Source of the DNA: a virus
DNA: 64,000 bases
Direction: 5' to 3' (one strand)
Virus record (IMG/VR): IMGVR_UViG_3300047379_000570
Coordinates: 7,164 to 71,163 of that record
Below, piece by piece: positions 4,671-53,485 of this stretch. The notes under the pieces are model-generated. The model was not told the DNA's origin, did not search any database, and worked only from the letters and a program-made list of their open reading frames with translations. A program made the position numbers and the translations under genes. Position 1 is the first letter of the stretch. Every line of letters begins with the position of its first letter.

Positions 4671-7600
4671 TTATCCTAGTGCAGCAATCTCCCCAGTATT
4701 CTTAAGTCTTAGCGGAATGTAAATAAATTCAATCGCCTTAACTGGTTCAATAGCTACGTCTAAATAAAGCTCGTTACGATCAATTCTAGCTGCTGTGTTG
4801 TTTGATTCGTCACATACAACTAAGTAATCGTAAACAGCTCTTAGTGCTACCAATTCTAATAACAGTGCGTCTGCTGCTGCTTTAATTTGGTCACGTGTAA
4901 TCTTGTCATTTGGTTCAAACAAGTATGGTTTTGCCAATAGTTCAAGTTGTCCACGTAAGTAAACAGTTAAACGTGCTACGTTAACTCTATCCAATGCACT
5001 TGCGTTTCTTGCACGAGTCTTTTGTCCAAATACTACTAATCCTGCACCACTTAAGAATGTAATTGGATTAATTTTATTTGAATATAGTGTATCACGCTGT
5101 CCTGTGTTTAGTGCTACTGAAACAAACTCTCCTTCGTTATTAATATAACCCGAGCTTGTTGCGTTGCTTACGCCACCGCGTCTTGTACCTGCTGGAGCAA
5201 ACCAGGGGAACGCAACTTGGTCGTTAAGTATAATAGTACGTAGTGCCATATGACTTGGAGGAACAACAATGTTGTTACCAAAGTTGTCACTTGTAAAGCC
5301 TGCACCGTAATACATAGCCATATACTCGTCAAAGCTCACTGCACCATTGTCGTTATCTTCAACAGCAAGTCTAACGTTTGATGCCCATTCATTTAATGAA
5401 GTTGCATCTGGTGTTAAACGGAATGGTGTGTCACCAACTACAAACGATGTTAAACGTCTATCCGTGTTTAGTGTAATCATTTCACCAATTAGTTCAGGAT
5501 AACCTGGCGCTGCCATTAAGTTAAACTGACGTGATTCTTCGTCACGTATTTCTTGGTTACTGTTTACTAGTGCTTGTAACGCTTGTACAACACTCTTGCG
5601 TTGTGCATGACGACCAAATGTTCCTGAACCGTCTTCGTTATTGCCTGAGTCTGTTACCCAACGATGTGGATAATAATTAGTTGTACTTAGGTCTCCGTAA
5701 CGTCCGTTAGTTCCGTTAGTATCTACGTAGTTACGCTCAAAACGCTTAACATTGAAGCCACTTCTACGTGTGTTCCATAGCAACATACCTCTTGGATATA
5801 ATGCTGGATCTGGAGCATCTGGATCTAAATAATCGCTAGTAACCATTTCTGAAATAGTTGCACTTGGTGCAACTAATGTTGTACCACCTGTGTCACCGTA
5901 GCGAGCATCACCAAACAAAATTCCATCTTCAGTAGTTTGGTCTGAGTTATCAACTAAAATCCAACCACTTGCTCCTGTTGCAGCAATAGTTGCATTATAT
6001 TTGTAAATTATTGGATAGTCTTCAACACTTGCTGTGCTTACCCAAATGTCGCCTGTTACTAGTGCTGATGCACCGTCTGCTTGCGTTGTTGGTTCAGCTG
6101 CTGATACAATTGGACCTTGTGGATCTGTACCACTAAACGGACTTGCAATTGAGCTTTCACCTGACGCTCCGTCATATGCAAGACCTACCCAAGTATCACC
6201 ATTGTGTACCATAATGTCAACTTCATCAACAATTGAATTGTACCATAGTGCGCCTTGTGCTGTTAAGCTCAATGGTGCGCTGTTTGAAGCAGTATAAGTT
6301 AATGGTGCCCAGTTTGAAGCTACAAACTGCTTTGGTGATGTAGCTGCTGTTGTGCCTGGAGCAAAATACAAGTTAGTTGTTCCACCAGCACTTGCACTAA
6401 AGCCAAATAGTTCTAAGCCACCGTCAGTGTCAACTAAGTCAATTTCACCGCCTAGTTTGTGTGAAATCTGTACTCGATTTTGTGCATCAACTACAGCAAT
6501 AACATTTGTTAATCCTGCTGCGTTAATTTGGCCAGCTAATGTATCTGCATCAGCAATGTCAGCAGCAGTTGTAACGCTTACTGTAACTGGTGATGTTTTA
6601 CTAGCTGAAGCTGCTGTTGTTTCTGCAATAGTAAATGTATATGTAGCTGCTGCAATACCTGTTGATGTAACTTTAGAGCTAGTAATTACAGTTGCTCCAA
6701 TTGCACTTCTACGGTATATTTTAAAATCTGCAATTGGTGGTGTAGTACCGTTAACATTAACATCTGCAAACAAAGAATCAACAGTAATGTTTGTTCCGCC
6801 ACCTGTTGGATCTAAACCGTAAATTGCTTGCTCAGGTCTACTAAAAATTGGTGTTACAACTTTGTTCCAAACAGCTCCTGCTGCTGAATATTGTTTTACA
6901 CTAATGTTTGCGCCGCCGTTTGGTTGTGTAGTTTTAAGCCAAACACTGCCTGATGGTGCAGGTGATGTGTCTGAAGACTTAAAAGTTGGTACGCTTGTGT
7001 GTGGAGCAATTTGCACTCTTGGTGCAGAGTATGTTCCAGCTGTTAAACCTAAGTTTGCTACTAGTGTTCCGCTGCCTTCTGCAATAGAAACTGTTCCTGT
7101 AGCTGTAGTGCCCGAACCGCCTTCATCATCAATTGCTGTAGCATCTACATAAATTTTAATTCTGCTATCAATTAGTGCAGCATTTATGCCTGTTACTGCC
7201 GCTGCATTAATTGCTGCAACCACATCAGTAAATGTTGTACCGCCAGCAACGACTGAAACACCATTTAGTACAATTGTATGTGTAGCATCAACTGCTCCCG
7301 GCGCATTGGTGCCTGTTGCTGCTGGATAACTATCTGCCCATTCGTTACTTCCGAGTGCAACCCATTTGCCTGCATTTGCTGTTCTTGTTGCTTGTGATGC
7401 ACCGTAACCTGGTGACTTATAAAATACTCTATTATCATTGCTTGAATGATCAATAGCATAGTCTCCAATAGCACCAATTGATTGTTTAGGTAAATCACTA
7501 CCATCTAAGTCATCGCTTGATGTAATAGCAATGTGTGTTTTGCTTGAAAACGTTTGTCCGCCTACAGTTGTAATTGCGGCGCCGTTCCATTCTAAAATAC

Positions 7601-51393: not shown

Positions 51394-51404
51394 TCATTTT
51401 CCTT

Positions 51405-51431
51405 AAAAAATGTAGGGGATTGCTCCCCTAC
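51405..51431 (-). terminator. Intrinsic terminator
   Basis: Minus strand GTAGGGGA-GCAA-TCCCCTAC followed by ATTTTTT. Confidence 0.75.
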
Positions 51432-51441
51432 TTTTCTATTC

Positions 51442-51846
51442 TTAGTCAGCTTCAAAATCGTCTGCGTCAGTGAATGAATCATCTGTACCAGCTTCTTCCA
51501 TTTCAACTGCATTGTCATCAGTTGCATCACTGAAGTTCCAAGCAATACTTGCGCCTGTGTCAAGTGTTACTTTACGTCCTGCAATTTTAGTAACTTGACG
51601 AGCTGTTCCGCCATCGTCTTTAACTGTAATAGTCATCTCGCCTACATCTAATGTACCTTGCGATTTGTCAACTAAAGTACAATCCATTGTATTAGTACCA
51701 TCATAGCAACGGAACTTTTTAGATCCTAATTGCTTTACAATCCAGCCGTTTGCTTCTGCTTGTCCTGTAGCACGATAACGTACTTTAATTTCATTGCCGC
51801 CAGCTGTCGGCTCTCCAAAATATCTTTTGTTTAGTGGTCTTCCCAT
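51442..51846 (-). CDS. Hypothetical virion protein (possible head decoration)
   Basis: 134-aa ORF with strong SD AGGAG, its own late promoter and terminator, downstream of the capsid gene. Confidence 0.75.
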   Translation of the reverse strand: MGRPLNKRYFGEPTAGGNEIKVRYRATGQAEANGWIVKQLGSKKFRCYDGTNTMDCTLVDKSQGTLDVGEMTITVKDDGGTARQVTKIAGRKVTLDTGASIAWNFSDATDDNAVEMEEAGTDDSFTDADDFEAD

Positions 51847-51940
51847 TTGTTTTCTCCTATAAAAAGTAGTCCTATGCCCGTTCTATGAGCTACGCTGTGG
51901 TGCAGCATAAGTCCGCCTTGCGGCACACTATCTGACAATA
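51847..51940 (-). promoter_or_regulatory. Structured 5' leader (candidate cis-regulatory RNA)
   Basis: TGCC-GCAA-GGCG GNRA hairpin and TATGCTG-CACCA-CAGCGTA hairpin; follows late promoter 51942-51948. Confidence 0.5.
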
Positions 51941-51956
51941 GTATTTATCAAATAAG

Positions 51957-51991
51957 AAAAAAGCCCGACACAGTTAAGTATCGAGCTTTTT
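51957..51991 (-). terminator. Intrinsic terminator (T-tracts on both strands)
   Basis: Minus strand GCTCGATAC-TTAACT-GTGTCGGGC followed by TTTTTT. Confidence 0.75.
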
Positions 51992-52203
51992 AATAATAAA
52001 GTGATAGGTTGGACTTTGAGAATACCAACAACCTCCTAGTAGCTCTCGCTAAATTCGGAGGAGCCTAGCATCGGATAGTTACTTCCAAAAACATATCTTT
52101 GTATCTCTACAATCATATGTTGCCACTACAGCTACTAGCCAAGTTGTGTCACTACGCAACACCGTTCCTTGCACTATCTAACTTAGACCGTCGCCTAACT
52201 TAT
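51957..52203 (-). ncRNA. Candidate structured non-coding RNA (~245 nt)
   Basis: Own sigma70 promoter and intrinsic terminator, several perfect helices, no credible ORF. Confidence 0.6.
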
Positions 52204-52209
52204 GTAACT

Positions 52210-52237
52210 AATATAACATCATTACAAACAATGTCAA
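52210..52237 (-). promoter_or_regulatory. Sigma70-type promoter
   Basis: TTGACA (52237-52232), 16 nt, TATATT (52215-52210), with an extended -10 TG. Confidence 0.7.
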
Positions 52238-52258
52238 CCACTTTTTTAAAAAAAAGTC

Positions 52259-52287
52259 AAAAAAATAGGCCCCGTAGGACCTATTTT
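52259..52287 (-). terminator. Intrinsic terminator of the major capsid gene
   Basis: Minus strand ATAGGTCC-TACG-GGGCCTAT followed by a T-tract; C(UACG)G tetraloop. Confidence 0.85.
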
Positions 52288-52306
52288 CTGTTTAGTAAAA
52301 CTAAAC

Positions 52307-53485
52307 TTAGCTAAAGCTAACTGCTGTGTCAGTAATGTCTACTTTACCCAAGTAGTCAGCTGCGTTACCAAGCGATGACGCAGTGTTATTCAACTCAACA
52401 TATCCATAACGTGTCATGAATGATACTGTTGGTTCGAATGTACCTGGATCCAATACAACTCCTGAGCTCATTAGCGGGATGTATGGGCAATAGAATGCCG
52501 CTGCATCTGATTCGCTTGAACCTTTGTAGCCGATTAGTACCGCTGAATCATCAGCAGCATAAGTGTTTACATACACTTTCATAGCGTTGTTCAAAGTACC
52601 AACCATCTTAGTGTTAGTTGGAGCTTCAAAAGCACCTTCAGTTGTACGTGCAAACGCTGAAGTTGTAGCAGATTGTAGGATTGTTAACGCGAATGGCGAT
52701 ACAACAGCCCAGTTACCTGCACCTCTACGTGTGCGCTGTGCAATCAAGTTACTTACGCGGTTGATCTGCACTGCCAATGCGGCATGCTCGTCACCTACGA
52801 ATGTAGCTGTACCTGAAACACCTGTTTGTACATATGTTTCAGCAGCAGCACCAGCTAGTGTGTCTAAAGACGCTAGTACTTCTTGATCGATTTCAGCAGT
52901 AATCTCTTGTGCTAATGCAGCCATGATTTCTGCTTCAACGTCAATACCGTGCATAGACTGTGCGTCTTGTGCAGCTTCAAACGTCCAGCGAGCTGACAAC
53001 TTACGTGTCTTAGCTTCAACTGTCTGTTTCAAGATTTGAATTGACATTCTGTTACCGGCTTCACCTTCAAGTGCTGCTGTTGCATCAGCTTTACCTGATG
53101 TAGCATTACCTGAATATGCTTCAGCAATTTTGAATGGGCTTAAAGCTTCTTCGCCTGCTGTTGCACCTGATGCGCCTGTCCCTACTGTGTCTGAATAACG
53201 AACACGTAGAGTGTGGATTTGACCCACAGGACCAGTCATTGGTTGTACGCCTACTAACTCGTTAGCAATAACGGTTGGCATTACACGTCTGATTACTGGA
53301 AGAATCACACGGTTTAGTGTTGCAACGTTGCCCGCGCTTGTTGCACCAGCTGTAGCACTCTCTGACAAGTACTTGCGGGTATTTTCTAGCGTAGCAGCCA
53401 TAACAGACTTCTTGTTGCCTTGCAAGCCTTCAAGAAGAGCAGTTTTGGTGTCTACCCAGCGGCTTTCTAATAGTTCTGACATCAT
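52307..53485 (-). CDS. gp23: Major capsid protein (gp23-like)
   Basis: ELVGVQPMTGPVGQI, VEAKTRKLSARWTFEAAQD, EITAEID, FYCPYIPL and FMTRYG; SD spacing favours the second Met (53482). Confidence 0.97.
   Translation of the reverse strand: MMSELLESRWVDTKTALLEGLQGNKKSVMAATLENTRKYLSESATAGATSAGNVATLNRVILPVIRRVMPTVIANELVGVQPMTGPVGQIHTLRVRYSDTVGTGASGATAGEEALSPFKIAEAYSGNATSGKADATAALEGEAGNRMSIQILKQTVEAKTRKLSARWTFEAAQDAQSMHGIDVEAEIMAALAQEITAEIDQEVLASLDTLAGAAAETYVQTGVSGTATFVGDEHAALAVQINRVSNLIAQRTRRGAGNWAVVSPFALTILQSATTSAFARTTEGAFEAPTNTKMVGTLNNAMKVYVNTYAADDSAVLIGYKGSSESDAAAFYCPYIPLMSSGVVLDPGTFEPTVSFMTRYGYVELNNTASSLGNAADYLGKVDITDTAVSFS

Follow-up and report, generated by a model that had tools for sequence, protein, structure and literature searches.

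The question raised by this locus is what is encoded by roughly 245 nucleotides (nt) of DNA, behind the capsid gene of a virus, that contain no convincing open reading frame (ORF). The locus lies in IMG/VR virus record IMGVR_UViG_3300047379_000570, of which positions 7,164 to 71,163 (64,000 nt, one strand; hereafter the window) were analyzed, and all coordinates are those of the window unless a locus handle is given. An earlier note, made from the letters of the sequence, had placed here a stand-alone structured RNA with its own promoter and terminator and had been unable to assign it to a known class. In the present analysis the element was identified, almost certainly, as a divergent member of the manA family of RNAs (Rfam RF01745), and it is quite probably made as a transcription unit of its own in a lineage of marine jumbo myophages. 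This family has been an orphan since 2010, and in the available text of Weinberg et al. (2010; PMC2864571) it is described as a riboswitch candidate.

Identity of the RNA behind the capsid gene

At gathering thresholds the Rfam scan of the window reported only the freshwater-2 motif (RF02980); manA emerged with E-value reporting. The match (52198..51998) covered positions 1-192 of the 192 positions of the RF01745 model at 44.5 bits, with an E-value of 3.4e-8 for the 64-kb window (both strands, all families) and of 9e-12 for the 71-kb virus record. Two samples of relatives were fetched: 80 loci around related capsid genes and 80 loci around relatives of ORF134, the 134-amino-acid (aa) ORF that follows the element. 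Using RF01745 on the records behind the first 50 capsid-gene loci, a match at E <= 0.01 was found in 14 of the 50, each time just 3' of the capsid gene, and three of these records exceeded the cut-off (79.9, 56.4, and 55.5 bits). Scores of the relatives' elements at this position ranged from 36.6 to 79.9 bits.

Recognition was reciprocal. A covariance model built from 23 elements of the window's clade (R1) detected the element in 24 of 81 and 25 of 80 sources. It also recovered the manA of cyanophage P-SSM2 at its Rfam coordinates (40.1 bits, E 5e-14; the Rfam score there is 181.6 bits) and that of S-CREM1 at its annotated coordinates (49.6 bits, E 8e-18), and it matched 71 of 80 loci fetched with the canonical manA sequence pattern. 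The full-model RF01745 match, the scores of the relatives and this reciprocal recognition together leave family membership well supported despite the sub-threshold score of the window. The novelty claimed for an unrecognized RNA is thereby removed; the earlier note had itself foreseen that a match to a known Rfam family would have this effect.

Covariance models were used because nucleotide BLAST was too insensitive for manA RNA: neither the region nor one relative's element gave a match among 50,697 phage records, and S-CREM1 manA as query returned itself alone. RF01745 was not found in cyanophage Syn9, and no cultured carrier of this clade's manA cassette was identified. Weak sub-threshold Rfam matches (RsaA, SraG, Thr_leader, and others) fell on the terminators and were dismissed as look-alikes of these. 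A tRNA-like or transfer-messenger RNA (tmRNA) reading of the element was likewise rejected, as no tRNA or tmRNA was called anywhere in the window.

A shorter variant was present at L148-L151:2305-2477 (173 nt, 58-60 bits with R1). It retains the hairpin at the 5' end, the helix that closes the domain and the final two hairpins, and its middle domain does not align with the L5-L7 part of the family.

Covariation of the manA fold

The Rfam structure was transferred to the window sequence and was counted on two alignments: A1, a MAFFT alignment of 23 sequences that was not fitted to structure, and A4, a model-fitted alignment of 38 sequences, which leans towards structure. In the slid control the 3' partners were moved by 1-3 columns. 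Standard pairs filled 85.7% of A1 cells, compared with 35-44% when slid, and changes on both sides were seen in 43 of 54 pairs, compared with 17-23 when slid, with 0 of 500 shuffles as high. In A4 84.5% of the cells were paired (36-46% slid). The manA fold of the element is strongly supported by covariation.

Two of the helices that had been found by eye belong to this fold, namely the 5' hairpin (52198..52183) and the long hairpin capped by GAGA (52121..52090). In the stem of the latter (helix 7) all six pairs had changed on both sides. The GACG loop of the 5' hairpin is common to the window and to the manA RNAs of P-SSM2 and S-CREM1. The remaining three helices fared worse among the 23 homologues. 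The supposedly perfect 9-bp helix, CTAGTAGCT/AGCTACTAG, was paired in 67-79%, with 9-11 of the 23 homologues unpaired at several positions; it is peculiar to close relatives of the window and competes with two well-covarying manA helices. AGGTTG/CAACCT was paired in 79% with no change on both sides, and a shifted register, GUUGG/CCAAC, was paired in 100% with two such pairs. GATAGT/ACTATC, from which a pseudoknot had been proposed, was paired in 87.5% with one change on both sides and is not conserved; its GATAGT strand is the 5' strand of the closing helix and pairs better with CUAUC at 52007..52003 (97.3%, three pairs changed on both sides).

Promoter and terminators of the element

The outline given in the earlier note (a promoter, some 245 nt, and a terminator behind the capsid gene) and its coordinates were reproduced by the feature scan, which found an extended -10 sigma70-type promoter at 52237..52210 and intrinsic terminators on either side, term1 at 52289..52260 and term2 at 51991..51958. 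The clade contained 40 distinct copies of the element, of which 39 had upstream sequence and 34 were full-length with downstream sequence. In 36 of 39 copies the promoter agreed with TTGACA/TATAAT at 10 or more of 12 positions, at a spacing of 16-18 nt, and the TG extension was present in 37 of 39. From the end of the -10 hexamer to the first hairpin the distance was 11 nt in 26 of 39 copies and 7-21 nt in the remainder. As a control, random 70-nt windows from the same loci scored at least 10.5 (10 of 12 matches plus TG) in 0.28% of 4,691 trials.

At the other end, a terminator hairpin followed the domain by 0-11 nt in 31 of 34 copies, built from many unrelated stem sequences; the terminator stems vary freely, whereas the 3' part of the element is conserved. 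Nine terminators failed the T-tail test through a T-run that was counted inside an A/T-extended stem, and their T-runs are visible in the sequence. The three copies lacking a terminator were L018, in which a tRNA-Gly follows after 5 nt, and L010 and L109, which had neither terminator nor tRNA. The promoter in 36 of 39 copies and the terminator in 31 of 34 support the earlier view of an independently transcribed, structured phage RNA rather than a protein gene. The sigma70-like site that had been called an early promoter was found and is kept with the element; the word early was read from the sigma70-like sequence alone.

Transcription would start near the A at 52203, about 5 nt before the first hairpin, and host polymerase may make the RNA early in infection. 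The 201-nt domain would then adopt the manA architecture, and transcription would end at the terminator 6 nt past the domain, yielding an RNA of about 245 nt (from ~52203 to ~51958). ORF134 starts 151 nt past the manA domain, behind an ATAAATA and a leader of its own. A place in the 5' untranslated region (UTR) of a protein gene, on which the cis-regulatory label of manA is based, was therefore not found in the window. Since ORF134 is served by a late-promoter-like signal and a freshwater-2 leader of its own, the RNA would most likely be a free, trans-acting molecule and not a leader switch. No observation made here favors the ribozyme, protein sponge or anti-defense RNA that the earlier note had offered as examples, and these are no more than guesses.

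An optional cassette behind the capsid gene

In total, 70 distinct complete gaps between the capsid gene and ORF134 were compared, and 30 of these contained the manA element. Among the 40 gaps without it, 22 measured 127-216 nt and the others reached up to 1292 nt. Aligned with the window, relative L094 had term1 directly beside term2, with no promoter and no manA, so that in the window promoter and manA are inserted exactly between the two terminators. The capsid gene and the element may be separated by 780-1360 nt of other genes, and the near-consensus promoter is still immediately upstream of the element. The distance from element to ORF134 was about 150 nt in most relatives, with 520-1110 nt of other DNA in several. 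The cassette of promoter and manA is optional in this lineage.

Contexts of manA across the family

In P-SSM2 a perfect TTGACA-16-TATAAT promoter precedes manA, and 16 nt separate the end of the RNA from purL, which is the classic leader layout. In S-CREM1 (L166:1633-2003) manA is flanked by tRNA-Leu and tRNA-Asn at a distance of 0-1 nt, and tRNA processing would therefore liberate it as a free RNA. In L018 (4289-4573) a tRNA-Gly(tcc) begins 5 nt past the element, and in L199 tRNAs are found 5 nt upstream and 4 nt downstream of manA, without a promoter. These copies inside tRNA arrays suggest release by tRNA processing.

Using a simple-rule scan, the context of 65 distinct canonical manA copies from IMG/VR (L169-L248) was recorded. 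A promoter with at least 10 of 12 matches, its -10 ending 4-11 nt before the element, was found in 62 of 65. Several of these promoters were perfect (TTGACA-17-TATAAT), and locus L247 carried two manA copies. A tRNA occurred within 60 nt downstream in 4 of 65 copies and upstream in 2 of 65. It is a family-wide trait of manA to begin with the first nucleotides of a strong host-type promoter, and no mention of such a promoter-proximal rule was found in the literature searched. Ending at a terminator is a rule only in the jumbo-phage clade.

Loop contacts and possible self-assembly

Complementarity between loops, expected of manA both from the 2010 description ("pseudoknot?") and from a bioRxiv preprint of July 2026 (10.64898/2026.07.01.735769), is present in the window, as far as the available parts of both sources describe it. 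According to the available part of the preprint, manA RNAs form pentamers, pentamer-based decamers and a 60-subunit cage in vitro through intermolecular L5-L7' and L8-L9' kissing loops, and another member makes a GNRA-receptor contact through L6. The agreement of these loop names with the complementarities in the window suggests that the same contacts may be formed here.

The L8 and L9 segments changed together across clades (AUGA/UCAU, AGGA/UCCU, CAGA/UCUG, CUGA/UCAG, and GGUA/UACC) and in accepted members of the family (GUCA/UGAC in S-CREM1 and UGUA/UACA in P-SSM2). Their covariation score was 0.648; it fell to 0.05-0.27 in the slid controls and was reached by 0 of 500 shuffles, and 43 cells carried changes on both sides. 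At least four Watson-Crick pairs were possible in 20 of 38 sequences; when L8 was matched to the L9 of sequences with a different L8 the figure was 1.1%. L5 and L7 also varied in other clades (GGUA/UACC and UGGU/ACCA).

The covarying loop contacts suggest assembly interfaces under selection. The most likely molecular behavior of the RNA would be self-assembly via L5-L7 and L8-L9 with the GNRA-capped L6 kept; that the element assembles in vivo is, on this analysis, a prospect that we put slightly short of even. More tentatively, manA RNAs may be phage-made self-assembling particles (pentamer-based rings or cages) and not riboswitches, made in quantity from the first nucleotide of strong host-type promoters; the jumbo-phage clade would then show them in pure form, as an RNA of about 245 nt that is free and ends at a terminator of its own. 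If this were true, the joint changes in L8-L9 and in L5-L7 would testify, on the evolutionary side, to selection in nature for the intermolecular contacts seen in vitro.

Alternative readings of the locus

A riboswitch-type leader would have manA sense a ligand and the terminator at 51991..51958 gate read-through from the sigma70-type promoter into freshwater-2 and ORF134. The available text of Weinberg et al. (2010; PMC2864571) presents manA as a riboswitch candidate commonly found in 5' UTRs, which agrees with the position of the P-SSM2 copy before purL, with the gene starts close behind about half of the canonical copies (32 of 65, within 40 nt), and with the usual spacing of some 150 nt between element and ORF134; an aptamer followed by a terminator is also the classic layout. 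Mutually exclusive pairing of terminator and antiterminator tied to the aptamer, as a riboswitch of this kind would have, was nevertheless not found by a duplex-energy test: over 32 sequences the 5' arm of the terminator paired with the last 90 nt of its own element at -7.52 kcal/mol and with those of other homologues at -7.84 kcal/mol, which is no preferred complementarity. The same terminator also stands behind the capsid gene in relatives without manA, ATAAATA precedes ORF134 in nearly all gaps with or without manA (69 of 70), several relatives have 520-1110 nt of other DNA in between, and tRNAs flank the element in S-CREM1 and L018. Given the lack of an antiterminator preference the leader-switch reading is disfavored, and we consider it unlikely, although a switch that works without a competing helix may still operate.

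That the element instead forms an appendage at the 3' end of the capsid mRNA, such as a stabilizing or processing element reached by read-through of term1 and without promoter activity of its own, is very improbable. The element is always downstream of the capsid gene, and a 708-nt contig from an RNA library (run X1) spans from inside that gene through the element to 51999 without differences; a contig across two genes may, however, be DNA and is no proof of a single transcript. Between capsid gene and element stands term1, the promoter stays immediately 5' of the element across 780-1360 nt of intervening genes, and canonical manA copies elsewhere have the same promoter arrangement (62 of 65). 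Between promoter and terminator the window also contains ORFs of 26 codons (52116..52036) and 31 codons (52174..52079), and nothing longer. The idea that one of them encodes a small protein, the structure being incidental, can draw on the 26-codon frame being intact in the seven closest relatives. At least 20 codons were, however, retained in only 11 of 38 aligned homologues, the start codon was in place in 23 of 38, many copies met a stop after 2-16 codons, and substitutions across homologues track base-pairing and not codon structure. This reading is scarcely credible, and the earlier statement that no credible ORF is present agrees with the 26-codon frame not being conserved.

The reading preferred here, a manA-family RNA made as its own unit, also has observations to contend with. 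The score of the window (44.5 bits) is under the Rfam gathering cut-off of 55.2 bits. Single-sequence folding gave a minimum free energy of -57 kcal/mol (z -1.78) and recovered about half of the manA fold; the thermodynamics of the single sequence being weak, structural support comes from the comparison of homologues. RF01745 was absent from five large related genomes (Vibrio phage 2.275.O, PA5oct, a complete 344-kb record, and two partial records), so the RNA is dispensable. In the canonical set an ORF of at least 50 aa started within 40 nt in 32 of 65 copies and a terminator-like hairpin was found within 45 nt in at least 8 of 65, by a crude scan that may miss weak terminators. The family could act in cis, and the terminator of the window could be a regulated attenuator invisible to a simple duplex test. 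Regarding assembly, loop numbers L5-L9 were assigned by order along the fold and by matching complementarities, so that the mapping to the loops of the preprint is inferred. L5-L7 allowed at least four Watson-Crick pairs in 23 of 38 sequences compared with 33% in cross-pairings, a modest covariation, and the L8-L9 pairing could lie within one molecule. In the available part of the single, unreviewed preprint (10.64898/2026.07.01.735769) the oligomers were seen in vitro only, at high RNA and Mg.

RNA libraries belong to the same balance. Among the public runs listed with part of 51400-52700, 21 of 24 were RNA libraries labeled seawater or marine. Four of these runs were examined, all as assembled contigs, from which ends, strand and level are not readable and for which an origin from DNA is possible. 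Contigs over the element were found in three of the four, which establishes presence in RNA libraries and nothing more. The X1 contig (51999-52675) bridges capsid gene and element and so also fits read-through, and run X2 had no cover over 51884-52280. Contigs of X3 (241 nt, 51940-52181) and X8 (182 nt, 52010-52182) roughly coincide with the RNA, contig ends proving nothing.

Comparison with known systems

With canonical manA (RF01745) the elements of this clade share the full-length model match, the covarying helices, the GACG first loop, the GNRA-capped long hairpin, the L5-L7 and L8-L9 complementarities, an origin in T4-type phages from marine samples, and a near-consensus sigma70-type promoter placed tightly before the element (36 of 39 here; 62 of 65 in the canonical set). 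They differ in the sub-cut-off score of the window and in being carried by a jumbo myophage lineage and not by cyanophages or Photobacterium. A terminator follows here (31 of 34) in place of a gene start (canonical copies: hairpin 8 of 65, ORF 32 of 65), the closing helix reads GAUAG/CUAUC where canonical copies have the GGGAG/CUCCC type, and of the hairpins the third is shorter and the GNRA-capped one longer. Transcription-terminating riboswitches have the same order of promoter, structured domain, intrinsic terminator and downstream gene; in contrast to them, no competing antiterminator pairing was found here, the terminator is present without the domain in relatives, ORF134 has a promoter-like signal of its own, and no ligand is named for manA in the literature searched. 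ROOL and GOLLD are phage and prophage RNAs that form RNA-only nanocages and are often near tRNA genes, according to the available part of Kretsch et al. (2025; PMC12286853). As far as that part describes them, they resemble the element as phage-encoded structured RNAs with self-assembly through loop contacts (predicted here) and with tRNA neighbors (the manA of S-CREM1 and L018). They have no sequence or fold relationship to it and measure 500-800 nt or more, compared with about 200 nt.

Within the literature searched, three points are new. A divergent manA branch exists in jumbo myophages that are not cyanophages and is missed by the Rfam cut-off; manA is packaged there as a stand-alone cassette of promoter, RNA and terminator; and this context argues that manA acts in trans, against the textbook label of a gene-leader switch. 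No paper was found that describes manA as a gene of its own between promoter and terminator, or its occurrence in jumbo phages, and supplementary tables beyond the search may list contexts or promoters; in McCown 2017 (PMC5473149) the sole match was to the word "manage". For the original claim the outcome is sobering, as the RNA belongs to a known family and is not a new class. The range of that family is extended beyond cyanophages and Photobacterium to marine jumbo myophages. A lineage of free-standing manA genes, together with the copies cut from tRNA arrays, provides natural test cases for manA biology, and if the RNA works without a downstream gene, manA functions in trans.

Host lineage and neighboring features

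The 71-kb virus record has an estimated completeness of 20%. Its capsid protein shares 67-71% identity with the capsid proteins of Vibrio phage 2.275.O (349 kb), Sinorhizobium phage Phosso, PA5oct and Rak2-like phages. This places the host lineage of the element among the jumbo myophages; the host is a marine member of that group, with Vibrio phage 2.275.O and PA5oct as relatives. The label gp23, given to the capsid gene earlier, is right as to the T4-type major head protein family (phrog_138) and is otherwise only loosely so. Every gene around the element is on the minus strand, with a prohead protease gene 5' of the capsid gene and baseplate genes further 3' (Table 1).

Table 1. Features of the window from the capsid gene to ORF134, in the direction of transcription.
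Feature	Position	Strand	Evidence or remark
Major head protein, ORF of 392 aa	53485..52307	-	phrog_138, E 2.9e-99; T4-type
term1, intrinsic terminator behind major head gene	52260..52289	-	13-pair stem, then T-run
Sigma70-type promoter (TTGACA 52237..52232, 16-nt spacer, TG 52218..52217, TATATT 52215..52210)	52210..52237	-	11 of 12 matches plus TG
manA-family RNA domain, 201 nt (5' hairpin, then closing helix around four sub-domains)	51998..52198	-	RF01745
5' hairpin UUAGGC/GUCUAA, loop GACG	52183..52198	-	Helix 1; 5 of 6 pairs changed on both sides
Closing helix, 5' strand GAUAG (partner 52007..52003)	52174..52178	-	Helix 2; 97.3% paired, 3 pairs changed on both sides
L5 segment UAGU, complementary to L7 ACUA	52125..52128	-	Covariation
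L6, GAGA (GNRA-type) tetraloop capping long hairpin 52121..52090	52104..52107	-	GNRA cap in 34 of 38 aligned homologues
L7 segment ACUA	52076..52079	-	Covariation with L5
L8 tetraloop GAGA, complementary to L9 UCUC	52044..52047	-	Covariation
L9 segment UCUC	52018..52021	-	Covariation with L8
Closing helix, 3' strand CUAUC	52003..52007	-	Helix 2
term2, intrinsic terminator ending the RNA	51958..51991	-	14 pairs, then T-run
ATAAATA, likely start signal of ORF134, outside the RNA	51942..51948	-	Kept 80-110 nt before ORF134
freshwater-2 RNA motif (RF02980), 5' UTR of ORF134, outside the RNA	51844..51927	-	64.2 bits; cut-off 49.9
ORF134, 134 aa	51846..51442	-	No Pfam or PHROG match

Searches of Pfam and PHROGs assigned no function to ORF134 or to the following three ORFs. 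An ATAAATA lay 80-110 nt 5' of ORF134 in 69 of the 70 distinct gaps, and we take it to resemble the late promoter of T4-type phages. The freshwater-2 motif begins just after it, and the match extends into the ribosome-binding site and ATG of ORF134. Its core was present in 64 of 70 gaps, with or without manA, and RF02980 exceeded its cut-off in 16 of 20 further loci. Freshwater-2 is here the leader of one conserved late gene beside the capsid gene of these jumbo phages, the carriers being marine and not freshwater; a literature search on freshwater-2 found only unrelated papers.

The gap behind the capsid gene was also an insertion hot spot framed by two tandem terminators (window 51958-52289; L094:2780-3015; L163, PA5oct). 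A short ACTTT repeat is present at both junctions of the manA cassette of the window. In other relatives the gap held nothing, the manA cassette, or a 338-aa ORF without a Pfam match (L084). A 237-aa ORF together with a 67-aa ORF that had a weak cold-shock-domain match occupied it in L009, and a Hef-like homing endonuclease in PA5oct (L163). In L096 (2182-2763) the same gap contained a glutamine riboswitch aptamer (RF01739; 2248-2295, 50.4 bits), a 31-aa ORF, and a 23-aa peptide matching PqqA (PF08042; 2499-2570) at 40.7 bits, compared with a cut-off of 21.1. It is unusual for a phage to carry a PqqA-like peptide behind a glutamine aptamer.

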